From: an uncultured virus (IMG/VR IMGVR_UViG_2049941000_000050)
Lineage: Duplodnaviria > Heunggongvirae > Uroviricota > Caudoviricetes
Reading direction: 5' to 3' (one strand)
Length of the DNA stretch: 64,000 bases
IMG/VR virus record: IMGVR_UViG_2049941000_000050
Part shown: positions 4 to 40,704 of the stretch, one piece after another
Numbering within the stretch: the first letter of the stretch is position 1
Layout: each line of letters begins with the position of its first letter
The notes under the pieces: generated by a model
What the model was told of the DNA's origin: nothing
Databases searched by the model: none
Seen by the model: only the letters and a program-made list of their open reading frames with translations
Made by a program: the position numbers and the translations under genes

Positions 4-675
4 GTTGCAACTCGCACGTACGCGGAAGATGAAACTCAATGGAGACAATGTTTTCGGCGTTGTTAAAAAGTTGCAACTCGCACGTACGCGGAAGATGAAA
101 CTTTGCCCCAGATTTTCCAGCACTACGGGAATTTCGTTGCAACTCGCACGTACGCGGAAGATGAAACCAATGATGCCAGGNNNNNNNNNNATATGAACCA
201 TTGGGCGGGGCGTATCCACAATGGGGACGAGAATTTCCTGANNNNNNNNNNGGTGCTTTTGACAGAGGTTTTGAACTCCATAAGCGTAACTTCCCGATAT
301 TCNNNNNNNNNNCCCGATGGTATCGTTAACGGCGGAAATCGGTAGTTGCAACTCGCACGTACGCGGAAGATGAAACAGTTATTCTTTCGACTTNNNNNNN
401 NNNATTCTTGCGATTACGGTTTTGTCGCTGATTGTTGCAACTCGCACGTACGCGGAAGATGAAACCGTAGTGTTTCGGCGGGGAACAAATCCCCGCTGTG
501 TTGCAACTCGCACGTACGCGGAAGATGAAACCAATGATGCCAGGTCTGGNNNNNNNNNNCTTCCGCCGTGATTTCGTTGCAACTCGCACGTACGCGGAAG
601 ATGAAACCAATGATGCCAGGTCTGGAAAAGGTTTTGACCGAAAGTTGCAACTCGCACGTACGCGGAAGATGAAAC
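4..675 (+). CRISPR. CRISPR array 1, 8 copies of 32-bp repeat GTTGCAACTCGCACGTACGCGGAAGATGAAAC, spacers ~34-36 nt; leader probably off-window to the left
   Basis: Identical repeats start at 4, 70, 136, 345, 434, 500, 576 and 644. The GCT before repeat 1 matches the leader junction of array 2. Internal N gaps and a repeated spacer start (CAATGATGCCAGG x3) indicate imperfect assembly. Confidence 0.95.
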
Positions 676-692
676 GCGACCTTGGTTTGCGG

Positions 693-2258
693 TGAATTCT
701 ATGCGAGGCTAAAGACCTCGCATCTTCTTACTTCAGCGTTCTAACTTGACATCGGCACTACCAGTGCTTTTGACAGAGGTTTTGAACTCCATAAGCGTAA
801 CTTCCCGATATTCCGTCGGTACTGAAATCTTGTTATTGAATACCAAATTCTTGATGCTCAACATGTTCTTGGCACTGTGGATGTCCCTATCCTCGTGATA
901 TCCACATTCGCAGACATATGTTCGTTCATCAAGTCCGATTGAATGCTTCTTGCCACATTTTGGACACCACTTTGTTGTTGGGATATACTTGTCCAGCAAT
1001 ATGGTTTGCGGCAACGCCTTCAATTTTTGTTTGATGCGACCCATGCAGGAGTGCTGAACCTGTTTTCCAAACACACCTTTTTGCCAACTTGATATTTGTT
1101 CATCTTGCATGACAATACAATCATATTGCTTCAGCATATGAACTATCTTGTTCGCCTTGTCTGATTTTTTGTTGCCAATCTTCTGGTATTCTCTTTGTAT
1201 TTTCTTTACTGTCTTGTATCTATTGCTAGAACCTTTTTCTCTGCGAAACATCTCTCTTTGAAGTTTCTTGAGTCGTTCACTTTCTTCAATAGATACATCT
1301 ATCTTTTGTCCTTCGCTTGTTGTTATGTTGGTCTTGATGCCAAAGTCCAGACCAATTTCCCTCCCATTTGTCTTTTGTGTTTTCCAATTTTCCTTGTTGA
1401 TGAAACATACCACTTTCAGATAATATCCATCTGGCTTTTTCACCAAGTTTGCATTTGCCAATTCGTCAGCAATTTGAAGTTGTCCACCAGTCTTCACCAG
1501 AACATCGCCATGTATGCCTTGAATTTTCACCTTGTTGCACGACTTGAACTTATATGTTGTTCCATATTGCTTCAGGGGGATGCAAGCCAATTCTGACTTG
1601 AATTGCAAGTTGCCATGTTTTTGATGCCCCCTTTTGACTAATGAACAAATAGCCTTTTCATTTTGCGCCATTCTTGTGAGGATTGCTTGCTTTTGCTGAC
1701 CACTCAATACCTTCAATTCAGACTCGATTGAATTCTTGTCTTTGTCATAATGAACTACGGTTTTGATGCTGGTCGTATTGATTGCATTCAATTTCTGCCC
1801 ATTGTTGCGCAAGTTCAAAACGTGATTGTAGAACCATTTTCCCTCCACGAACAATTGCTCAAGTTCTTCTCGTTGTCTTTTGTTCAATCGTTTTTCCACT
1901 ATCTTGCATTCATAGCAACGAAGCACTTGATTTTGTCTGCGAAGTTGAGTAGCCAATAGAGCGTTCTTGATGGCAAGTTTCTTACCATCATCACATTTTC
2001 CTCTATTTTCTACTTTATTGTTCATCATATCTATTTACAATTATACAAAGATTCTCATTCTTCTTGTATAATATTTTTTACACAAATTTGCCGAAAATCC
2101 ATGTTGTTATCGTATATTATTTTGAATATTTTTCGCGTCAATTCACATGCGACACTAAAGATGTCGCATCTATCTTGACGCAATTCTTGTATAATATATA
2201 TTTGGAAAGGAATGGCGAATTCATCGCAACCACTGAAGATGGTTGCGTTTCCTTCGCC
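693..2258 (-). mobile_element. TnpB-only IS200/IS605-like element 1
   Basis: Right-end hairpin ATGCGAGG-TCTTTAG-CCTCGCAT followed by ..TTCA at 693-724. A distal hairpin motif at 2214-2258 is nearly identical to 33819-33863. Composition differs from the phage backbone. Left boundary approximate. Confidence 0.7.
733..2028 (-). CDS. tnpB: TnpB family RNA-guided nuclease (431 aa)
   Basis: RuvC-I GLDFGIK, RuvC-II-region MQDEQ, Zn ribbon CPKC..CEC, RuvC-III DRDIHSAKN. Confidence 0.92.
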   Translation of the reverse strand: MMNNKVENRGKCDDGKKLAIKNALLATQLRRQNQVLRCYECKIVEKRLNKRQREELEQLFVEGKWFYNHVLNLRNNGQKLNAINTTSIKTVVHYDKDKNSIESELKVLSGQQKQAILTRMAQNEKAICSLVKRGHQKHGNLQFKSELACIPLKQYGTTYKFKSCNKVKIQGIHGDVLVKTGGQLQIADELANANLVKKPDGYYLKVVCFINKENWKTQKTNGREIGLDFGIKTNITTSEGQKIDVSIEESERLKKLQREMFRREKGSSNRYKTVKKIQREYQKIGNKKSDKANKIVHMLKQYDCIVMQDEQISSWQKGVFGKQVQHSCMGRIKQKLKALPQTILLDKYIPTTKWCPKCGKKHSIGLDERTYVCECGYHEDRDIHSAKNMLSIKNLVFNNKISVPTEYREVTLMEFKTSVKSTGSADVKLER

Positions 2259-12311: not shown

Positions 12312-14209
12312 ATGGACAGAAAAAAGTTTTTAAACGCGCAGGAACTGGTGTGGAACACGGTCGGCGCGAAACTCACCGTGGGGGAAAAATTCGTGGGGTT
12401 GGCCTGCCTGATGAAGGCATCCCCCGAAAAGAAGTGCTTCGAACCGTGGGAAATGTACTACCCGTTGGTGGGTTCCGCACGGGGCGGCGAGAAAATACTC
12501 CTCGGGCTTCTGAACCCGGCGGAAATTTCCGCCGCGAACCCGTTCACGTTCAACATGTCGAACCTGTACAACTTTTACGGGGAGCGTTTGGAAATCCCCT
12601 TCGACTTCTGGAGGTGCGACAGTCTGGGGGAGTGTAGGTTGAGAATGGAGGTGTCCGGGATAGACCCGAACAAAAACCGCTTCGAGGGGAAAACGACCGT
12701 TCCCGGGGCGTTGGAGTGGTTCGAAGCGTACAGATGGAGAGACTGAGATACGGGGGCGACGATGTCTTTTTTTAATGACGAAGAAAGCTTTATGGAACTG
12801 AAGGCGTTCGTAGACAAATACCGCTACAAGATGGGCGAGGGGAAGAGAATCGGGAATATGGACTGGGAAACGTTCAGGAAACTGGACGAGTACCTCCCGA
12901 CCCTCTCGGAAATGTACAGCTACGCGAGGATTTTCAAAAACGTTTTCGGGCTGGAGTTCTCATACGACGAAAACCGCAGTCAGACCTGCCTGAGGGGAAT
13001 CGACCGCGTTCTGTGGGGCATAGGGTTCGGGACGTGCGCGATGGAATCCCTAAAAAAATCCCTTGGCGAGTTCCTGAAGAAAACCTCGACCGAGACGGAC
13101 CTGGTCTTCAACAACGAGTACGGGTACACCGTCCGGGTCCCGAACTTCGGCTCCCTCGCGGAGCTGACGGTTTTCCTCGACGTGAACGGTCTCGACCCCG
13201 GGACAAACCTCTTCGAGGAAGCCTCTAGACAGCCCTCACGCGAAAAATTTCTCGGGAAGTTCGGGTGTTTCGTGGTCGGGAAGACCGATTCCGAGGTCAA
13301 CGAGATGTCATACGAGGAGAGGAAGTTGATGAAGATGCTAGACGACACTTTCCTTAATGCGTTCCAGCCGCTGTTTCCACACGGCGAGGACAAATGAGAC
13401 TTTGTGGAACCACACCCTGGGGGAAATGGGTCGTGGGGGAGTTTGGGAAATGGACGAAAAAACCGCCCGGCTAAAAGCAGAAGAGCTGTTTGAAGCAGAG
13501 GAATTCCTCAAAATAATGAGGAACGTGTACAGTTTCAACGCGGAGTGGGACGATTCGGACAACTATCTTTCGGTCGCCGGGTTGTACATCATCCTTCTTC
13601 CGAACGTAGAAACCCTTTCCGAACTGAAACTGAAGCTCGAGCTGTCGGGAATCGACTGGGAACGCCCGATTCGGTGGGAAAACGCCGAGGAAAGGCAGAA
13701 ATACCCGACAGTTTTCAGCGAGGGAGAGTAGAATGGGTCGTGAATCGATTGACCACTACGGGCGGCAGTGCGTGGGGGAGATGCTCGAGCTGAAGAAAAT
13801 TTACGAGAACGCGTTCGGGTGCGAATTCTATTACAATCCGGTCTACGGATACATAACCATAAAGGGAAAAAACCGATGCATAATCTCTTCGGTGTACTCG
13901 GTGAAAAAGGGCGACTGGCTTTCCAAAATACGTCTTCCCTTGAAGCCGTTTGGGAGAGAGTTCAACTACTTAATCAGGGAGTGTGTCTCGGTTATGAACC
14001 ATTGGGCGGGGCGTATCCACAATGGGGACGAGAATTTCCTGAACAAATATAATTTCGATACGGTTTTTCTCGAGCACGAATCCGTCCAGGAACTGAAACT
14101 GAAGCTTGAGCTTATGGGAGTCGACATCGAGAAACCGATTTTCGGGGGAAATCTCACGGAAAGAGAGATTCTTGAGCTGTACCCGAGCCTTTTCAAAGAA
14201 AAAATCTAG
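12312..14209 (+). other. four tandem family-A paralogs (12312-12746, 12762-13397, 13450-13731, 13733-14209)
   Basis: Motifs SLGECRLRMEVSGID, PNFGSLAELTVFLDVNGLD, PNVETLSELKLKLELSGID, SVQELKLKLELMGVD. Confidence 0.7.
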
Positions 14210-23746: not shown

Positions 23747-24151
23747 ATGAGACTTTGGCCTCTTTCGATTTTGAAACAGCTTCCCAGACAACAACTCCTC
23801 GGACAGCATAGGGAGTGTTGCGCGTTGAGGGGGCTCGGATGGGGAAAGAAGCACAGCGTGGTCGACTACGTTTTCCGGCACCCGCGTTTCTTTCTATACG
23901 AGTACCACAGTAAGATAATCTCGGAAATGGAGAGAAGGGGTTATAAAGCCGACCCGGTCTGGAAAGATTCATCCTACCGTGGGAAAAGAATCGGGAAAGA
24001 TTTTTCACTCGACACGTCTCTGAAATCGCCGTTCCCGGAGATATATCCCGAACACGACTTCTCGTATCTGAACGAGTGCGTCGAGAACCTAGAAAGAAAA
24101 GGGGTAAAAATTAACCGGGATTTTCTTGACAAAAATGGGGTTTCCGAATAA
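23747..24151 (+). CDS. pyrimidine-dimer DNA glycosylase-like protein (TIGR02328-type)
   Basis: MRLW...LPRQQLLGQHRECCALRG.GWGKKH..VDYVF. Confidence 0.85.
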   Translation: MRLWPLSILKQLPRQQLLGQHRECCALRGLGWGKKHSVVDYVFRHPRFFLYEYHSKIISEMERRGYKADPVWKDSSYRGKRIGKDFSLDTSLKSPFPEIYPEHDFSYLNECVENLERKGVKINRDFLDKNGVSE

Positions 24152-24161
24152 AATACCCGCC

Positions 24162-25310
24162 ATGAAAAACGAACTGTCAGTTTTAAGATTCATCAGTGAA
24201 CACCCGTCCAACTGGGAAAAGCTCCTATCCGAAAGCCCGTATTTTCTAAAAATAACCAGGGATTCCATTTTCGGGAAAAACCTAGTCATGTTGAAATACG
24301 ACCAACAGGAGTCCGATTTTTCGGAACCAATTGTGAGGGAGTGCCGCGGGCTGATTTTAGACGCGGACACGCTCGAGGTGGTAAGCTTCCCCTTCACGAA
24401 ATTCTTCAACTACGGGGAACAGCACGCGGTTGAAATCGACTGGAATACCGCCCACTGCGAGGAAAAAATAGACGGTTCGTTAATCAAGGTTGTCAATCTC
24501 GGGGAGAACCGTTTCCTAATCTCGACCAACGGGACAATAGACGCTTCCAAGTGCGAAATCACAAACATAGTAATGTCCCCGTTCAAAACCTACGGGGAAA
24601 TGGTTAAGGAAGGGTTCAAACACTACGGTCTGACCGAAAAGGATTTCCCGAGGCTGTTCAGACCCGGTTTCACCTACATGTTCGAGATAACATCCCCGTA
24701 CAACCACATCGTGGTGAAATACGATGAGACGAAGCTGTCTTTTTTGGGGATGAGAAACAACTCCACATTTGAGGAGACTTTTTTCCGGGATTCGGAACTT
24801 TCCGAAATTTTTAACACCCCGGAAATTTACCCCCTCAAGAATATCGACCAGTGCGTTTCCGCCGCCGAAAAACTCGGCGAGGACAAAGAAGGATTCGTTG
24901 TCTGCGACAGGAATTTTAACCGGATAAAGGTAAAGTCGCCGATGTACGTCGCCCTTTCTCACCTGAGGTGCAACGGTTCGCTCTCGCACGAGCGGGCTTT
25001 GGAAATCGTCAGGAAAAACGAAATCGGCGAAGTCGTCAATTATTTCCCGGAATTTGAGAAACCGCTTCAGACGGTCAAATCCGACTACGAAAGCCTTGTC
25101 TCGGACCTGGAAGCCAGGTGGGGGGATTTTCTCCGAAAAGGAAAGGGGCTTTCCGAGAGAAAAGACCGTGCGAAACTGGTCGGGGAAATTTTCAGGGAAC
25201 TTTTTTACGTCGGGTTTCTCCTTTTGGACGGGAAAACCGAATCGGTCAGAAACTGGGCGGAAACGGTTTCTTTGAAAAAACTGTGTAGAATCTTAGGGTA
25301 CAAGGAATAA
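24162..25310 (+). CDS. T4 Rnl1-like RNA ligase
   Basis: ECRGLI, KFFN, motif I EKIDGS, YMFE, EGFVV, RIKVK. Confidence 0.88.
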   Translation: MKNELSVLRFISEHPSNWEKLLSESPYFLKITRDSIFGKNLVMLKYDQQESDFSEPIVRECRGLILDADTLEVVSFPFTKFFNYGEQHAVEIDWNTAHCEEKIDGSLIKVVNLGENRFLISTNGTIDASKCEITNIVMSPFKTYGEMVKEGFKHYGLTEKDFPRLFRPGFTYMFEITSPYNHIVVKYDETKLSFLGMRNNSTFEETFFRDSELSEIFNTPEIYPLKNIDQCVSAAEKLGEDKEGFVVCDRNFNRIKVKSPMYVALSHLRCNGSLSHERALEIVRKNEIGEVVNYFPEFEKPLQTVKSDYESLVSDLEARWGDFLRKGKGLSERKDRAKLVGEIFRELFYVGFLLLDGKTESVRNWAETVSLKKLCRILGYKE

Positions 25311-33818: not shown

Positions 33819-35173
33819 GGCGAAGGAAACGCAACCTTCTTCAGAGGTTGCGATGAATTCGCCATCTCCTTTCAATATATTATACCACTTGAAAATATTT
33901 TGTAACGTTGCTCATTCATAATGAAGTTTCTCAGTAAAATTGTGTAAATAATATTGTAATGAGAACATACAAGGTCAAATTGGAATTCGAGAACCAGAAT
34001 GTCAAGGACTTCTGGAAGAAACGCATTTGCCTTGTACAAGATTGCTACAACTACGCTTCCAACATCACCTTCAACGAGAAGGTTCAACTTGGTCTGAAGT
34101 CAGTTCATAGTAGACTATATTATGAACTCAGAGGCAGGTTCAAGGAACTTCCTTCTCAGATATGCATTCAAGTTGAACGGGCATTGATTGCGAACTACAA
34201 GTCGGTTCGTTCCAATGGACACCACTTGGACAAGCCAATTCAGATGAAGCATCCTGCAATCCAGCTCGACAAAAGGTTGTTCAGCAATCTTACAAGAGAG
34301 TCCTTCAAGTTGAGCAATGGAGATGGCAATCACAGGTCAGAAGTCAGATTCGTGACATATCCCAAGTTCGACCAATTGGCTGAGATGTACAAAATGTGCG
34401 ACCCAAAGCTGACCTACGATGTTGAAACTGACGTATTCCATGCTTGCGTTCCATTCCTCGACATCCCACCAACTCCACACGAAGACAGTTATATTGGAGT
34501 TGACCTTGGCGTGAAGAGATTGGCTACGCTTTCTGATGGCACATCTTACTGCGACAAGGAATACCTTGCGAATAGGAGAAGGATTCGACACAACAAGAGG
34601 ATGCTTCAATCCAAGAAGAAACACTCTCATTCTGCAAGGACGAAGTTGAAGAAGCTTCGTCGAAAGGAAGCCAATGTCTCCAAGAACACGTGCCACCATC
34701 TCGCCAATGCAATTCTGAAGCATCGTGGTTCTGTGGTGGTGATGGAGGACTTGACGAAAATCAAGCAAAGTACATCAAAGACGAAAGAAGGGTTCAAGAG
34801 AAAGCGTCACAACAACATGCTCTCTCAAGTTCAGTTCTATTTGATAAGACAGATTTTGACCTACAAGGCACTACTCAGGGGAAAGCGAGTAGAAACAGTT
34901 TCGCCCGAATACACATCCAGACAAGATTGCAGATATGGGTCTGGAGTTGGATGTAAACGTCAAGGGTGTAGGTTCTATACCAAAGATGGAATGGTGTTCG
35001 ATGCAGATTGGAATGCATCTATAAACATCATGAATCGGTATAAACACTCCACTTCGTTTGAGTTGCCTATTGATGGCAAGTTGAACTTGGTGAACAGGTT
35101 GCTTCAACCAACCAATAGTTCCGTGAGCAATCACAGAGCAATCTCAACGGTCTTCAGCCGTTGAGTAAGTTGA
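33819..35173 (+). mobile_element. TnpB-only IS200/IS605-like element 2
   Basis: Left hairpin motif 33819-33863 shared with element 1; right-end hairpin CTCAACGG-TCTTCAG-CCGTTGAG then ..TTGA. Confidence 0.72.
33959..35164 (+). CDS. tnpB: TnpB family RNA-guided nuclease (401 aa)
   Basis: GVDLG, VMEDL, YTSR.DC, DADWNASIN. Confidence 0.92.
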   Translation: MRTYKVKLEFENQNVKDFWKKRICLVQDCYNYASNITFNEKVQLGLKSVHSRLYYELRGRFKELPSQICIQVERALIANYKSVRSNGHHLDKPIQMKHPAIQLDKRLFSNLTRESFKLSNGDGNHRSEVRFVTYPKFDQLAEMYKMCDPKLTYDVETDVFHACVPFLDIPPTPHEDSYIGVDLGVKRLATLSDGTSYCDKEYLANRRRIRHNKRMLQSKKKHSHSARTKLKKLRRKEANVSKNTCHHLANAILKHRGSVVVMEDLTKIKQSTSKTKEGFKRKRHNNMLSQVQFYLIRQILTYKALLRGKRVETVSPEYTSRQDCRYGSGVGCKRQGCRFYTKDGMVFDADWNASINIMNRYKHSTSFELPIDGKLNLVNRLLQPTNSSVSNHRAISTVFSR

Positions 35174-35178
35174 ATTCT

Positions 35179-35854
35179 GTTTCATCTTCCGCGTACGTGA
35201 GAGTTGCAACGCGGAGCTAATACTCCCATCCTCAGACTATTAGGGTTTCATCTTCCGCGTACGTGAGAGTTGCAACTTTCGAGATTAAAAGATACAGCTT
35301 GACAGCCGTTGTTTCATCTTCCGCGTACGTGAGAGTTGCAACGCAAAAACCACAAGCACACCTTCCACGATGGGGTTTCATCTTCCGCGTACGTGAGAGT
35401 TGCAACCAATAAGCTTGAAACTGTGACCAAGGAATTATCGGTTTCATCTTCCGCGTACGTGAGAGTTGCAACTGCGGAAAACCGGGGTNNNNNNNNNNCT
35501 CATTGATGACCCGCAAACGGCGGAATCAGCCCAGTTTCATCTTCCGCGTACGTGAGAGTTGCAACGCCCAGTTCTTTCTGGACATTCTTTAAACGGCGGT
35601 TTCATCTTCCGCGTACGTGAGAGTTGCAACTGCGGAAAACCGGGGTNNNNNNNNNNTCAGGGCTTTCGGAAGAATTTCGATTCGTTCCGGTTTCATCTTC
35701 CGCGTACGTGCGAGTTGCAACAAACCAAATCGAAAAGAAGGCTGTTGTCGGAAGATGTTTCATCTTCCGCGTACGTGCGAGTTGCAACGGAAGTAATATC
35801 AGCCAAAAACAAGCACACGGGAGTTTCATCTTCCGCGTACGTGCGAGTTGCAAC
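35179..35854 (-). CRISPR. CRISPR array 2, 10 repeats GTTGCAACTC(T/G)CACGTACGCGGAAGATGAAAC
   Basis: Repeats start at 35179, 35245, 35311, 35375, 35441, 35534, 35599, 35690, 35757 and 35823. Seven are the T variant, three the G variant. Two N gaps. Confidence 0.95.
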
Positions 35855-36144
35855 AGCGGAAAACCGGGGTTTTCACCCCGCTCTGACCCATTTCTGAATC
35901 AGTTCTGTTCTCGTCTCCGAGGACATGGCGTGGAAATCCGCCTCTATCTAATTCATTTTTGGCAAAAACCGTTAAAATTTCTGTCAAAAACTTTCTTAGA
36001 GTACTTTTTTCTTCCGCGAACCTCCCAGGAAAAACCTGTGAACTTGGGGTTCGCGGAAGACTGGCGTTAAAAAAAAACAGTTTTTAAAAAACATTTTTTC
36101 TTTCAACGCCGAGGATTGTATCACAGTGACCAACCCTTTGTCAA
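35855..36144 (-). promoter_or_regulatory. CRISPR leader with inverted repeat and sigma70 promoter
   Basis: TTGACA (36144-36139), 18 nt, TACAAT (36120-36115). 13-bp inverted repeat TCTTCCGCGAACC/GGTTCGCGGAAGA at 36010-36060. Homologous copy at 40047-40199. Confidence 0.8.
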
Positions 36145-36197
36145 GTGGATTCTGAAACTTTTTTTCTAAAAGAGTTCCAATCCAACCGACGCCAATA

Positions 36198-37634
36198 TTA
36201 TACGGCTTTCTCCCCCACTTTTTCAGATTCTAACTCTTCCATCGCCGTTTTGTAGCACTTTTTCATAGCCACGGCGCAACATTTCTTCGTGAAACCGTAT
36301 CCCTGCGCGTTGTCGACGACTGAGCCGTCTTTCTTGTTGACGATTACCCACCGCTCGTTTTCGTTCCCGTCCTTGTCTTTCAAAGCCCTTTTCTCAACGT
36401 CCAAATCCTCCGGGGTTATTCCCTCGGGAAGAGTCTTGGCAAATTTCTCGTCATTCTTTTTGTAACGCTTCGCCTCTTCGCCGCCCCTCCAGATGTTTCT
36501 GTTGCGACCACATTTCTCGATACTGATGTTATCCCGTTTAGTCAGTTCTCCCGATTCCTCTCGCTTTTTAAGCCGTTCGTTGCGCCAATGGTGGGGATAT
36601 GAACCCTGTCTCGGCTTATACTCCAGCTTCTTCGGGAACGATATGTCGTTTCGGTCCTTGAGGTGCTCCAAATCCTCGTCCGACCACACACCGGCTTTGC
36701 GACCGATTCCGATTGCTCCGTTCACGTCGGCGTTTATGAGCTTCCTCTTTCCGGTCCTCGGGTCGATTACCGACGATTCAAACAGTCCGCGCTCGACCCG
36801 CCTTCCGAGAAACTTGTGGTCCTTCCTCGCGTCCCTGCCTTTCTTCCACATCAAAAGCTCCTCTTTTGCCGCGTGGTCGGTCTTCGAGGTATAAGATTCT
36901 TCAATCTCTTCGAGAAGAATCCCGGCATCCTCGCATTTGTACTTGAGTTTTTCAATCAGTTTTTTGTGGGGCATCTGCGCAAATTTCTGGTTGTTCTTTT
37001 TGCCCATGTTCGATTCATTTTTCCAGTCCTTGTTGTACCCGACAACAATTTTTCCGATGTCGTTGTCTAAAGCCCACTTGACGATTCTTATCGAGACGTA
37101 ATCTAACTCGGTGTTAATCTTGTTGCCGCATTTCCGGTAGAGGTTCCGGATTCTCTCGGACGTTTTCCGCTCGCCTTTGTACTGGTGGTCGAGAACGCTC
37201 TTGAACTCGGCTATCAGCCTGTTCCGGTTCTGGAGAATCGACAGAACGGTCCCCCCGTCGATAAACATCGATTGGTCGATTTTTGTCCCGTTCGTGACGA
37301 GTGTGCAGAGCCTTTTCACACCCAAGTCAATCGAAAGAACGTTGTTTGGGTTGCATGGGTTGGTTTTGGGAATTTCTTTTTCGTAAGAGTATACGATTGC
37401 GACTTTATCCCCGCAATGGATAAGCTTAACGCTGGACTTTCTTCTTACGAACCAATTAAAATTCATAATATCCGGGACCCGCAAAACCAACGAGCCGCCG
37501 ACCGTAATCGTCCTTTTTTCGTAATTTATCCCGCTGTAATGACCGCTACCCTGGAAAAACTGAATGGTTGCGTAACTGTTAAAGATATTGTTCTCTCTGT
37601 CGTGTTTGTACTGCGGCGGGCGGGGCAACCCGTT
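36198..37634 (-). CDS. TnpB/Cas12-like RuvC protein with ~140-aa C-terminal extension; N-terminus lost in gap
   Basis: SIDLGVKRL, IVVGYNKDWK (rearranged RuvC-II type), EESYTSK, INADVNGA, then an extension including DNAQGYGF. No IS-end hairpin at the 3' end. Confidence 0.8.
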   Translation of the reverse strand, partial: NGLPRPPQYKHDRENNIFNSYATIQFFQGSGHYSGINYEKRTITVGGSLVLRVPDIMNFNWFVRRKSSVKLIHCGDKVAIVYSYEKEIPKTNPCNPNNVLSIDLGVKRLCTLVTNGTKIDQSMFIDGGTVLSILQNRNRLIAEFKSVLDHQYKGERKTSERIRNLYRKCGNKINTELDYVSIRIVKWALDNDIGKIVVGYNKDWKNESNMGKKNNQKFAQMPHKKLIEKLKYKCEDAGILLEEIEESYTSKTDHAAKEELLMWKKGRDARKDHKFLGRRVERGLFESSVIDPRTGKRKLINADVNGAIGIGRKAGVWSDEDLEHLKDRNDISFPKKLEYKPRQGSYPHHWRNERLKKREESGELTKRDNISIEKCGRNRNIWRGGEEAKRYKKNDEKFAKTLPEGITPEDLDVEKRALKDKDGNENERWVIVNKKDGSVVDNAQGYGFTKKCCAVAMKKCYKTAMEELESEKVGEKAV

Positions 37635-37879
37635 NNNNNNNNNNCAAAAATAGGAACTTCCTTTGCCTTTTAAACCGTTCACGAGATATATTATATGGAA
37701 AAAACTTCCGGAAAGAAAAAATTTTTCAGAAAAAAATTTCACGTTTTTTAAAGAAAAAGCTTGACTTTTCCGGACGTTTTTGATATAATTCGCGAAATTT
37801 TCGCCCTTCCTCTTTCAAGAAGGGTCTGAATTATACCAAAAACCCGTCAAAAAGTCAAGCTTTTTTTGGAGGAAAAACG

Positions 37880-38173
37880 TTAGTTTTTTTGAAACTTCCC
37901 GTTTCCCAGTTTAATATTATACACGTTTCTTTTGAGAAATTCTTCGGTGACGATGTTTTCCAGCTGTTTGTCCACCTCGGCTTTTGTCTGGAAGTTGTAT
38001 TTGATTGTCTTTTCGAAATTTTCCAAACCCAGTTTTCTGATGTCCCTGAGAAGAATTGGATTGTGCCCGAGATAACCGTCGTTTGGATTGTCCGTGGAGT
38101 GTTTCCCGACGTAGATTTTCCCGGTCTTTTTGTTTTTGACTTCGAAAATAATGTTGTTCTTCAGTTCCGGCAT
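37880..38173 (-). CDS. short Seg-like GIY-YIG domain protein
   Basis: IIFEV.N...GKIYVGKH..DGYLG...YNIKLG. Confidence 0.75.
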   Translation of the reverse strand: MPELKNNIIFEVKNKKTGKIYVGKHSTDNPNDGYLGHNPILLRDIRKLGLENFEKTIKYNFQTKAEVDKQLENIVTEEFLKRNVYNIKLGNGKFQKN

Positions 38174-38309
38174 ATTTTTTCTTCCTTCCTGAAATAGTTA
38201 CCCGAATAAAAAAAATCCCCCGGTATTTTTATTGGGGGATTTTAATTTTAAAATATAATTTTTAATATTATACGGATTGTTTTTAAAAAATTCCTCGGTG
38301 AGAAGCTCT

Positions 38310-39133
38310 TTAAACTTTTTTTCCATTCTCTCTTTCGTTAATATATTTTATCCAATAAATTCTGCCCAATTTCCATCCCCATCTTTCGTAATCAGACAAA
38401 TCTGTTTTGAGAATAAATTTCGATTCTTTTCCATTGTTCACCCAACAGCGAATGTGAGCTGGGTTAGACTCGTCAATTTTTTTAGGTTCAACGGCTCCCA
38501 TTCTCCACCCATTATTGAGATATTCATCAAGAAGATGTTTTTTAATCTATTTTTTTAATTTTAATTCGTTATTATGAATCCATACTGTATTATAATTTCC
38601 ATTTTTTCGCCTTTTAAGGATATTTTATTCTTTTCCCGTATTTTTTGTTTGGTTTCTTCCGTGTGATGTTTTCCTTTGAAATGATATGGATTTAAATGAA
38701 GTTTACAATTATAGAATCTATCTGGGTCGGTAGCCCATATCCGTTTTAACGCTTCGCTTATTTTCTTTCCCTTTTCTTTTCTATAATTTTCATTCGACCA
38801 GTTTAATTCTGCGGCCCTTTTAGTTCCCATATTTCGTATATCTGTGAAATTATTCTATTGACCGCCGACCCTTACATTATATGTATCTTCTCTAGAGACA
38901 AATTCTTCGTTTACTATTTCTCTTTCCTTTTGGTTCATTTCTTCAAATGAGTCGAAATCAAATAGTGTTTCCCGTTTGAAGTTTTTTCTTCCTATGATTT
39001 CAATGTCTTTAAGGAGGTCTTTTCCACTTCCGAGATATTCATCGTTTGGATTATATGTTTGATGTTGGCCGATATAGATTTTTCCATTTATTAGATTTGT
39101 AGTCTGATAAATGATGTAATGCTTTTTTTCCAT
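38310..39133 (-). CDS. Seg-like GIY-YIG homing endonuclease with NUMOD3; in-frame TAG and likely C-terminal frameshifts
   Basis: IIYQTTN..KIYIGQH. TAG at 38855-38857 joins it in frame to 38561-38830 (FKGKHHTEETKQKI). W..N..GW..G motifs follow in shifted frames. Confidence 0.72.
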
Positions 39134-39263
39134 AGTGATTTTACCTTTTTGTTAGAGAAGTCTTAGCGGAGACTTCAAAAATATTTACTGTAAAAAAAAA
39201 TCGACCACGGCTATGGAACCGTGGTCGATAATATCTTATTAGGCCGCTACCTAACAAGATTGA

Positions 39264-39612
39264 TGGTGGAGGTGAAGACGCTCTGCCCGTCTTGTCCGAT
39301 AAGCATTGGATTCGCACCCTCGTTCACGAGCTTAGCCGATAGTGGTTTTCCGCCGTTTACCACCGGCATCTTTTCGGCGGAATTTGTTTCCGTGTGTCTT
39401 GACCGGTACCGGAAACGTCTTCCGGTCAGAACTTGCCGTATGAAGGAAATCCGAAGGCTGTCAAGTTTCGCCGACGGTTCCTCGGCGGTTAAGCCGCCAT
39501 TGCCAACGAATAGTCGTCGTTTAGTTTTTTTGGCTTGTTTTTAGGAAGAACAAAGCCGTCTTCCGCTCGCGGATACGTCCAATATCCCACCGTCGAATTC
39601 TAATACACCCCC
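39264..39612 (-). ncRNA. ssrA: tmRNA; tag (A)DDYSLAMAA*
   Basis: 5' GGGGGTG..TTCGAC, 3' CACCTCC-ACCA with G3:U70; tag ORF at 39518-39489. Confidence 0.92.
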
Positions 39613-39684
39613 AGTAAAAGGGCGTTGGGTAGTCGGACTACCCAACTGTCGGTTTTTTAACGAGAAGGCCGACGTTCTCACTGG

Positions 39685-39765
39685 TTGTTGGAGTTTCATC
39701 TTCCGCGTATATGCGAGTTACAACAAAATCGCGTTTTTTCTCGCAGTTTCGCGAAGTTCCAACAA
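39685..39765 (-). repeat. solitary degenerate CRISPR repeat (39693-39724) within a long repeat/anti-repeat hairpin
   Basis: 29/32 match to the repeat. Arms TTGTTGGA/TCCAACAA, CTTCGCG/CGCGGAAG, TGCGAG/CTCGCA. Confidence 0.8.
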
Positions 39766-39769
39766 AAAA

Positions 39770-39823
39770 GGGCGGGAAGTATTTTTATTAATGCAAACAA
39801 AAAATAGGAACTTCCTTCGCCCC
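39770..39823 (-). ncRNA. short Y-RNA-like stem
   Basis: GGGCGAAGGAAGT..ACTTCCCGCCC; shares GTTCCTATTTT with 39846-39965 and 37645-37667. Confidence 0.5.
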
Positions 39824-39845
39824 GGAAATTAATTACCGAGAAATC

Positions 39846-39965
39846 GGCGGAGCGTATTTTTTCGGGTCGCTCTATCCAGTTGAGCTACGGAGCGGAAACC
39901 GTTCCGGGCGGATTCGAACCGCCAACTTACCCGTTTACCTTATTAAAATAGGAACGCTCTATGCC
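39846..39965 (-). ncRNA. YrlA-like Y RNA (circularly permuted tRNA mimic)
   Basis: Closing stem GGC-ATA-GAGCGT/ACGCTC-C-GCC; T arm GGCGG-TTCGAAT-CCGCC; closed acceptor-like stem; D arm GCTC-AACTGGATA-GAGC; TATAAT just upstream. Confidence 0.75.
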
Positions 39966-40014
39966 TTTTTCCCGGTTAATATTATACCGAAAATTTTCGC
40001 GGACATCGGGATTT

Positions 40015-40199
40015 GTTTCATTTTCCACGTACGTGTGAGTTGCAACTGCGGAAAACCGGGGTTTTCACCCCGCTCTGACCCATTTCTGAGCCGGTTCTGT
40101 CCCCGTTTCCGGGAACATGGCGTGGAAATCCGCCTCTATCTGGTCGGTTTTGGTGAAATTTGTTAAAAATCCCGTCAAAAAAACCTTCCAGAGTACTTT
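40015..40199 (-). CRISPR. single degenerate repeat (40015-40046) with a second copy of the leader
   Basis: GTTGCAACTCACACGTACGTGGAAAATGAAAC; 40047-40199 aligns with 35855-36007. Confidence 0.8.
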
Positions 40200-40245
40200 G
40201 AAGGGGCGGCGAGTTGAACCAGTTCCTCCATATCCGCATTCAAAA

Positions 40246-40335
40246 TGGTTGCAGACGGACGAGTCGCACGTCTGGACACTCTCGCGTCCTCCTGGTTATG
40301 GGCCAGGCAAGGGCACTCTCCCTTTCACGTCTGCG
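40246..40335 (-). tRNA. atypical tRNA, anticodon CAT, 8/4 fold, long variable arm, C1:A mismatch
   Basis: CGCAGACG/CGTCTGCA-ACCA; CCTGG-CCCATAA-CCAGG; V arm GGACGC-GAGA-GTGTCC; T arm GACG-TGCGACT-CGTC. Confidence 0.75.
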
Positions 40336-40343
40336 TTCTAAAC

Positions 40344-40419
40344 TGGTCTCCCAGAGAGGATTCCAACCTCCGACCCACGGCTTAGAAGGCCGTTGCTCTA
40401 TGCGCTGAGCCACTGGGAG
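40344..40419 (-). tRNA. tRNA-Arg(TCT)
   Basis: CTCCCAG/CTGGGAG-ACCA; ACGGC-CTTCTAA-GCCGT; T loop TTGGAAT. Confidence 0.9.
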
Positions 40420-40426
40420 CCGAAAA

Positions 40427-40503
40427 TGGTGCGCCCGGGGGGATTTGAACCCTCAGCCTTGCGGATAGGAGCCGCATTCTCTGTCCAGTTGAGATACGGG
40501 CGC
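40427..40503 (-). tRNA. tRNA-Arg(CCT)
   Basis: GCGCCCG/CGGGCGC-ACCA; TGCGG-CTCCTAT-CCGCA; T loop TTCAAAT. Confidence 0.92.
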
Positions 40504-40704
40504 GGAATGGTCCGGGGGATTTTTGCCGAGAGGAGAAAGGAGAAACCCTCTCTTCCCCCGGACCGGGTTGGTATGGTATGGTATGGTATGTTGGCAAAGA
40601 GCTTTTCGGGAGATTCGGAACCCCTTCTGTCCCCCAAAACGCCGACCATTCTATGGCAGACCTTTGTTTTTGTCAAGAATGAAATCGGCTTTTTTCGAAA
40701 TTTT

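Follow-up and report, generated by a model that had tools for sequence, protein, structure and literature searches.

SR1, a solitary copy of a phage CRISPR repeat that lies in an island of RNA genes, is best accounted for as the decayed remnant of a cassette or array, situated in a hypervariable hot spot, a reading which we place first and hold at somewhat under even confidence. It was ranked first because SR1 has none of three features of the module of a second, neighbouring orphan repeat (SR2), which are a scaffold, a promoter-like upstream region and conservation of the pairing, and because the segment that carries it varies between strains. That SR1 is a copy of the repeat is confirmed. 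At up to three mismatches, its sequence has 12 matches in the window (the whole 64,000-nucleotide stretch that was analysed) against 0 expected in 100 shuffles, which is far beyond chance, and the 29/32 repeat copy described in the initial annotation was therefore upheld. We infer that SR1 arose by insertion or recombination and that it is inert.

The window is a scaffolded metagenomic phage contig with 26 runs of N, 18 of which are 10 bases long. Genes for a T4-type large terminase, an Rnl1-type RNA ligase and a clamp-loader-like AAA protein were recognized in it, and the best relatives of the terminase in viral_contigs are at most 50% identical. The sequencing runs that contain the stretch are labelled mainly as bovine gut metagenomes, and the phage, from the rumen, has a miniature CRISPR nuclease of its own. 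When the RNA-gene island was compared with phages by blastn, only its tRNA genes were matched (382 records, with 0 covering 80%), and the 5' word of the tmRNA gave 0 matches in viral_contigs, metagenome_contigs and genome_contigs.

The orphan repeat and its predicted hairpin

The initial annotation had proposed that SR1 is caged by an upstream anti-repeat in a hairpin of about 80 nt. In the fold predicted for the minus strand, an outer stem of 8 bp joins 39758-39765 with 39685-39692; inside it, repeat positions 18-23 pair with 39750-39755 and positions 8-13 with 39740-39745, a short apical stem closes the structure, and repeat positions 24-32, ATGAAAC included, are unpaired. The minus-strand segment 39680-39775 folded at -24.8 kcal/mol (z -2.41), with 5 of 200 shuffles at least as stable, and the same hairpin was retained when a context of 378 nt was folded. 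On the plus strand, the SR1 fold reached -28.2 kcal/mol (z -2.60). The end-to-end alignment of the upstream arm to the reverse complement of SR1 scored 11, and 73 of 4704 random window sites scored 11 or more against their own upstream 60 nt. The proposed architecture, with its outer stem and free 3' tail, was thus reproduced as a prediction both alone and in context, but its pairing exceeds chance only modestly, as judged from the shuffles and the random sites.

By a hand count from the alignment, the anti-repeat, which is separated from SR1 by 8 nt, matches the reverse-complemented repeat at 21 of 32 positions with one gap. As we read the same alignment, one of the three SR1-specific substitutions improves the complementarity. 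The "anti-repeat" is therefore best regarded as the entire repeat in inverted and degenerate form. Because this partner aligns over the full 32 nt, an inverted duplication explains the hairpin without selection for pairing.

SR1 had also been located between Y-like RNAs and tmRNA. The tmRNA gene is solid (Table 1), but the Y-like side consists of one sub-threshold YrlA match, and the structure of 40200-40343 is not significant (z -1.08). The predicted long stem and tRNA-like fold of the YrlA-like RNA look right. SR1 is directly preceded on its 5' side by the terminator-like hairpin with a U-run and is followed on its 3' side by the GC-rich hairpin, which folds on the minus strand also and is there followed by CCCUUUU.

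Table 1. Positions, strands and properties of the features discussed in the text
Feature	Position	Strand	Remarks
SR1, orphan CRISPR repeat copy	39693..39724	-	29/32 to array consensus; differs at positions 5, 14 and 15
Upstream "anti-repeat"	39733..39763	-	arms predicted to pair with repeat positions 1-3, 8-13 and 18-23
Whole predicted hairpin, ~80 nt	39685..39765	-	fold; z -2.41
GC-rich hairpin between SR1 and tmRNA	39624..39646	.	terminator-like on + strand (scan); kept in relatives
tmRNA gene	39264..39612	-	RF00023, 75.6 bits versus cut-off 47
Terminator-like hairpin and U-run 3' of YrlA-like RNA	39766..39823	-	3' half inside strain-variable segment
YrlA-like tRNA-like module	39865..39931	-	36.2 bits versus cut-off 69 (sub-threshold)
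SR2, second orphan repeat	40015..40046	-	29/32; changes at 20 and 25 keep leader-end pairing
Array-B leader copy upstream of SR2	40047..40199	-	79% over 185 nt, repeat included; family D9
Two tRNA-Arg genes, head of ncRNA island	40344..40503	-	
CRISPR array A	4..675	+	8 consensus repeats; runs off window start; contains scaffold gaps
CRISPR array B	35179..35854	-	10 repeats (a one-base variant in 7 cases); broken by two scaffold gaps
Array-B leader	35855..36197	-	promoter-like site 36144-36115; scaffold 35855-36007
Effector gene, 3' part (478 codons)	36198..37634	-	5' part lost in scaffold gap 37635-37644; upstream of array B, same strand

The phage CRISPR arrays, effector and leader scaffold

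The phage repeat is 32 nt long and is common to the two arrays in the window. The gap pieces in array A (168-344) include 50-nt exact copies of 13993-14042 and 764-813. In array B, the leader-end pieces that follow the gaps (35473-35488 and 35631-35646) both agree at 16 of 16 positions with the leader end of SR2 and not with that of array B itself. These gap pieces appear, from their sequences, to be scaffolding artefacts, and since the leader-end pieces match the SR2 leader end, the SR2 locus may be the true place of some of "array B". No spacer matched the window outside the arrays, scaffolding artefacts excepted, and two spacers searched for protospacers in viral_contigs gave 0 matches. Arrays A and B had no match to phages by blastn, and the repeat pattern had 0 matches in viral_contigs, metagenome_contigs and genome_contigs, a degenerate pattern being used for the last.

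Two further TnpB-family genes, at 733-2028 (minus strand) and 33959-35164 (plus strand), are mutually very unlike (BLASTP E 0.027). Both of these small genes run towards an array and stop 57 or 14 nt short of its leader-distal end; they may have inserted there as IS elements, or may exploit the antisense transcript.

The effector gene next to array B is broken by a scaffold gap. The ORF 36198-37742 was considered as a complete 514-aa protein and rejected, with its start judged spurious, because the identical database protein P0002 (632 aa, from a contig of 4991 bases) continues for about 245 aa across the gap. This additional N-terminal part includes a Cys-rich ribbon, and from its length the real effector would be about 720 aa. 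The effector scores NF040570 at 4.8e-32, and Pfam assigned OrfB_IS605 and a Cas12f1-like TNB domain to it. The model of P0002 (mean pLDDT 71.4) was matched best by Cas12f complexes (8j12, E 3.6e-12), then by TnpB (8h1j) and LaTranC (9jfq, E 1.4e-5), and the C-terminal 68 residues of the effector have a weak sequence match to LaTranC (E 0.0012). Only two database proteins, P0002 and P0003, are closer to it than the ordinary TnpBs of ~400 aa. By tblastn against phages, ordinary TnpBs of at most 39% identity were obtained, the best being LR756500.1, which has no array nearby, and 15 pattern matches for the effector in viral_contigs left 0 confirmed. On the domain and model matches, we read the system as a phage-borne, TnpB-derived type V system, probably of the Cas12f/TranC kind.

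The array-B leader has two copies in the window, one at array B and the other at SR2, the latter repeat being absent from the initial annotation. The repeat search placed 40015-40199 in correspondence with 35823-36007. The leader structure had z-scores of -7.19 at array B and -3.84 at SR2, and RNAalifold on the two copies gave 36 predicted pairs, with 0 broken and 4 one-sided changes still paired; one pair changes in a compensatory manner, from U-A to C-G, between the array-B and SR2 copies. In both copies, the last 9 leader bases are predicted to pair with repeat positions 19-27, so that the first 18 repeat bases form the loop of a leader/first-repeat hairpin. A type V single guide has this same order of scaffold, anti-repeat, loop, 3' part of the repeat and spacer. 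From these predicted folds, we infer that the leader probably serves as the tracr-like scaffold of the phage system, and the leader together with the first repeat would be an unsplit, omega-RNA-like natural single guide.

A structured scaffold contiguous with the repeat is present at SR2 and array B and absent at SR1. This result bears on a further suggestion of the initial annotation, that the SR1 hairpin may be a natural repeat:anti-repeat fusion for the nearby TnpB-like protein. The protein is indeed TnpB-derived and Cas12f-like, and hairpins of repeat and anti-repeat in cis are predicted at array B and SR2, but SR1 lacks the leader scaffold. In this phage, the true natural fusion would be formed by the leader and the first repeat, as seen at array B and SR2 and not at SR1, and SR2 is the more telling of the two orphan repeats.

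A further leader hairpin, with the repeat core (CGCGGAAGA) and its complement as arms, was found at about 36012-36062 (minus strand), upstream of the stretch that recurs at SR2. Similar palindromes are located at 37792-37804 (GCGAAAATTTCGC), downstream of the effector promoter-like site, and at 39987-40002 (CCGCGAAAATTTTCGG), directly after SR2. The SR2 flank and the effector promoter region have in common a palindromic motif of 10 nt, which from its sequence is possibly a shared operator and not a target.

Variation of the island in related populations

Contigs of four bovine-gut runs from four other studies (X5, X6, X7 and X9) were aligned to 37650-40700 at 80% likeness, a level that can mislead in metagenomes and at which the replacing letters are not visible. 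The tmRNA region, the hairpin at 39627-39679 and the YrlA-like side (39800-40013) were kept in the relatives, and the flanks were more than 95% alike: X6 differs from the window at 8 of 350 positions on the tmRNA side and 9 of 214 on the YrlA-like side, and X7 at 4 of 214 on the YrlA-like side. The SR1 segment, from 39680/39693 to 39794/39800, was replaced in three runs (X5, X6 and X7). Across other, unalignable letters, 39679 is joined to 39800 in X6 and 39693 to 39794 in X7, and in X5 39680 is joined to 39797 by a weak joint (depth 3.5, with a 30-letter side). No contig of X9 spans SR1; one ends at 39588, and another starts at 39794 with 97 further letters that do not fit. For the conservation of the pairing, which the initial annotation had named as a check, the outcome is negative as far as these contigs show: at 80% likeness, the SR1 segment was not kept in the four runs, whereas its flanks were.

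Homology in X7 breaks off at 39693, where SR1 ends, and at 40013, two bases beyond the end of SR2 (40015). In the same run, the SR2 cassette (40014-40197) is replaced by 19 letters, with limits within 2 nt of those of the leader duplication (40015-40199). Each X7 boundary comes from one contig at 80% likeness. Since the homology stops at the 3' ends of both SR1 and SR2, cassettes may have their boundary where the repeat ends on its 3' side, and these stops suggest candidate repeat-terminated cassettes. A contig of X9 contains, in order, a repeat, a 32-letter spacer, an SR2-like repeat and the YrlA-like side, which implies that the SR2 locus is a small real array in relatives.

The homing-endonuclease block at 38267-39262 is skipped in X6 and X9. 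From this variation and the replaced SR2 cassette, the island is read as a landing pad, or hot spot, for inserted, selfish DNA. Fragments of GIY-YIG / NUMOD3 homing endonucleases were recognized in the window at 37880-38173, 38561-38830 and 38855-39133 (minus strand), between the effector promoter and the tmRNA. One contig of X9 links position 37650, by way of 147 other letters, to leader-like sequence; either the effector gene is missing in this relative from the interval that separates promoter region and array leader, or the contig could be a chimera. Two copies of the motif GGAAGTTCCTATTTTT(T)G were noted on the minus strand of the window, one at 37645-37661, immediately next to the effector-gene scaffold gap, and one at 39798-39815, on the upstream edge of the strain-variable SR1 segment.

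Origin and possible roles of SR1

As a decayed fragment, SR1 would be the non-autonomous, 3'-terminal repeat of a repeat-terminated cassette or array fragment from the phage's own CRISPR/guide-RNA system, which would have landed in the fast-changing spacer of the tRNA / YrlA-like / tmRNA island. Facing it there would be a second copy of the repeat, inverted and decayed still further, and the hairpin would be a by-product of this inverted repeat pair. Read-through from the island would copy SR1 on the minus strand into an RNA that folds on itself, and the self-fold would bury repeat positions 18-23, which overlap the positions 19-27 paired by the built-in anti-repeat of the leader. The orphan repeat would then be inert, and neither a guide nor a decoy. 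SR1 is not a member of an array of direct repeats with spacers of about 32-36 nt; the gap between SR2 and SR1 is 290 nt and has an RNA gene inside. Several points are contrary to a relic. The SR1 hairpin is more stable than most shuffles and survives folding in context, and its cis anti-repeat covers nearly the repeat segment used by the leader, a coincidence of predicted pairings that looks purposeful. SR1 also lies between two terminator-like hairpins in a dense cluster of ncRNAs that share its strand, a setting expected of a discrete small RNA. Furthermore, the hypervariability could reflect an arms race and not neutrality, and the segment that replaces SR1 in relatives may contain a different caged repeat.

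None of the specific roles put forward for SR1 in the initial annotation is supported. It is rather unlikely that the island transcript gives rise, on the minus strand, to a self-caged SR1 RNA with a regulatory, decoy or processing function. This estimate covers jointly an RNA that titrates the effector or the tracr-like RNA of the leader, one that works as a mini guide handle without a tracrRNA, and one that marks a cleavage site between the YrlA-like RNA and the tmRNA precursor. Such an RNA would agree with the hairpin predicted alone and in context, with the pairing of repeat positions 18-23 as in the leader/first-repeat hairpins while the 3' tail is free, and with the strand, which is that of all neighbouring RNA genes. 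However, a consensus scan for sigma-70-type promoters found no promoter-like site upstream of SR1 in 39766-39900 on the minus strand, and the window repeat search found no copy of the leader scaffold (roughly 95 nt) next to SR1, although the nearest structures of the effector model are Cas12f complexes with long sgRNAs. A caged repeat would be unable to pair with the tracr-like leader end, the segment was not kept in the four related populations, and the significance of the fold is modest. In Cas12f and TranC guides, the 3' part of the tracrRNA pairs with the crRNA repeat, and engineered sgRNAs join both. The order of anti-repeat, loop, repeat and 3' sequence at SR1 is that of such a type V single guide, but SR1 offers a short duplex only, with no scaffold hairpins. 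In trans, its anti-repeat would pair with the consensus repeat at -20.1 kcal/mol, no better than the duplex background of the window (mean -14.9, sd 5.2 and 5th percentile -22.2 kcal/mol), and SR1 does not form a transcription unit of its own with scaffold hairpins, as expected of a tracrRNA. No other anti-repeat above background was detected by duplex energy, either with the forward repeat over the window, with the reverse repeat at the two small TnpB genes, or with the forward repeat at the effector 3' end and leader. Regulatory crRNA-like RNAs (CreA/CreR/crlRNA) consist of a degenerate repeat and a partial spacer that represses a promoter. SR1 resembles them as a degenerate repeat outside an array and near a cas gene, but nothing in its flank partly matches the promoters of effector and leader or the rest of the window: the best ungapped run against the effector and leader promoter regions is 6-7 nt, with no partial complementarity, and neither the SR1 nor the SR2 3' flank matches the window beyond chance 11-mers. 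The preprint 10.64898/2026.03.27.714800 describes repeats of 32-36 bp in short arrays for TranC clades 3 and 11, a range within which the 32-nt phage repeat falls. Transcription of the plus strand into an antisense or tracr-like RNA, which would pair with the pre-crRNA through a 29/32 anti-repeat, is quite improbable. Its complementarity is given by construction and its fold is as stable, but a scan of the same type found no plus-strand promoter-like site upstream of SR1, the anti-repeat would likewise be caged, the conserved leader already gives a scaffold-fused anti-repeat, and the neighbouring RNA genes are all on the minus strand.

The omega, or right-end, RNA of TnpB in IS200/IS605 elements has the element boundary at the 3' end of the guide scaffold, and its guide is the flanking DNA; seeds of type V systems adjoin the PAM. 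On this model, SR1 and SR2 would be homing-like guide cassettes of a phage-borne, TnpB-derived (Cas12f/TranC-like) nuclease, with the 185-nt leader-scaffold module copied into the island, an explanation that we consider unlikely. Both repeats would be the 3' ends of repeat-terminated modules and, because each cassette ends exactly at the repeat, the guide would be the flanking phage DNA, as at a TnpB right end. The leader scaffold would act in trans; when relatives co-infect, the effector would cut those of their alleles that have no cassette, and repair would copy the cassette in, all these steps being equally unlikely as a joint proposal; the cis anti-repeat of SR1 would be a minimal stand-in for tracr pairing or a cage against it. 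The X7 homology ends at the 3' ends of both repeats, and the limits of the SR2 cassette from the X7 gap and from the paralogue alignment, which agree closely, argue for such cassettes. In addition, the first 13 nt of the SR1 flank, which would be the PAM-proximal seed, differ in X5 and X6, the effector belongs to the TnpB family, and homing endonuclease genes use the same island. On the other hand, no PAM is known, no protospacers were found, and SR1 is caged and has no scaffold. The boundaries come from single contigs at 80% likeness, and ordinary recombination at repeats gives the same ones. Unlike IS200/IS605 elements, these cassettes have no transposase and no recognizable left end, and their mobility is deduced from the contigs of one relative.

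An RNA anti-CRISPR (Racr), in which SR1 would mimic the repeat of a host or a rival phage and poison that system, is improbable. Solitary intergenic phage repeats are a known kind, and PMC10651486 describes such repeat look-alikes (SRUs) as having no further direct repeat in the flanking 100 bp (SRUFinder), as not associated with cas genes and as often lying immediately downstream of a promoter. SR1 resembles those described there as a single intergenic phage repeat: its nearest direct copy is SR2, 290 nt away, and the only copy close by is inverted and, at 21/32, below the 70% rule. Related phages in other runs also carry arrays with a similar repeat. SR1 differs from the SRUs of that description in that its phage has a matching type V effector and arrays about 2 kb away, so that a decoy would hit the phage's own system, and in that no promoter-like site is located directly upstream. 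Moreover, an inverted partial copy is predicted to sequester the repeat. With regard to mimicry of a host repeat, the degenerate repeat pattern had 0 matches among the genomes of genome_contigs, and no host is known to carry this repeat. It is very improbable that SR1 is an assembly artefact, that is, an array fragment mis-joined into the island. The arrays are clearly mis-scaffolded in a window with so many runs of N, but there is no gap near SR1, and SR1 and its partner are unique decayed variants and not exact array repeats. Four runs of the possible source sample contain 0.90-0.98 of the sampled words of 39200-40600, a figure that is not independent and applies to the whole region rather than to SR1 specifically.

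If SR1 is only a decayed fragment, it is an ordinary one, since orphan repeats of phages are known and most features of a Racr are absent. The locus matters more than SR1 itself: the array leader is predicted to be a conserved structured RNA ending in an anti-repeat that is joined to the first repeat, and a discrete copy of this guide module sits in an ncRNA island which also hosts homing endonuclease genes. The preprint 10.64898/2026.03.27.714800 presents the published idea that type V systems arose by splitting of a transposon right-end RNA. The leader as a scaffold, the 185-nt module copy and the boundary at the repeat 3' end keep alive the reading of a TnpB-like selfish spread; if it is true, the phage would harbour a living intermediate between the spread of a selfish transposon omega RNA and CRISPR immunity. 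How transposon guide RNAs split into tracrRNA and crRNA, and whether the modules still spread selfishly, thereby become testable questions, for which an RNA gene of about 185 nt and one nuclease of roughly 720 aa make a small test system.

Two observations concern other parts of the window. The YrlA-like RNA (39865-39931), the tmRNA, the two tRNA-Arg genes and the Rnl1-type RNA ligase (24126-25310) are found together on one phage, and this set of RNA genes and ligase suggests a theme of RNA repair or quality control. Between 46700 and 57500, the intergenic regions contain repeated cassettes of several families, whose cores are promoter-like (TTGACA...TATAAT; repeat-search families D5-D7, D10, D13, D17 and D19).
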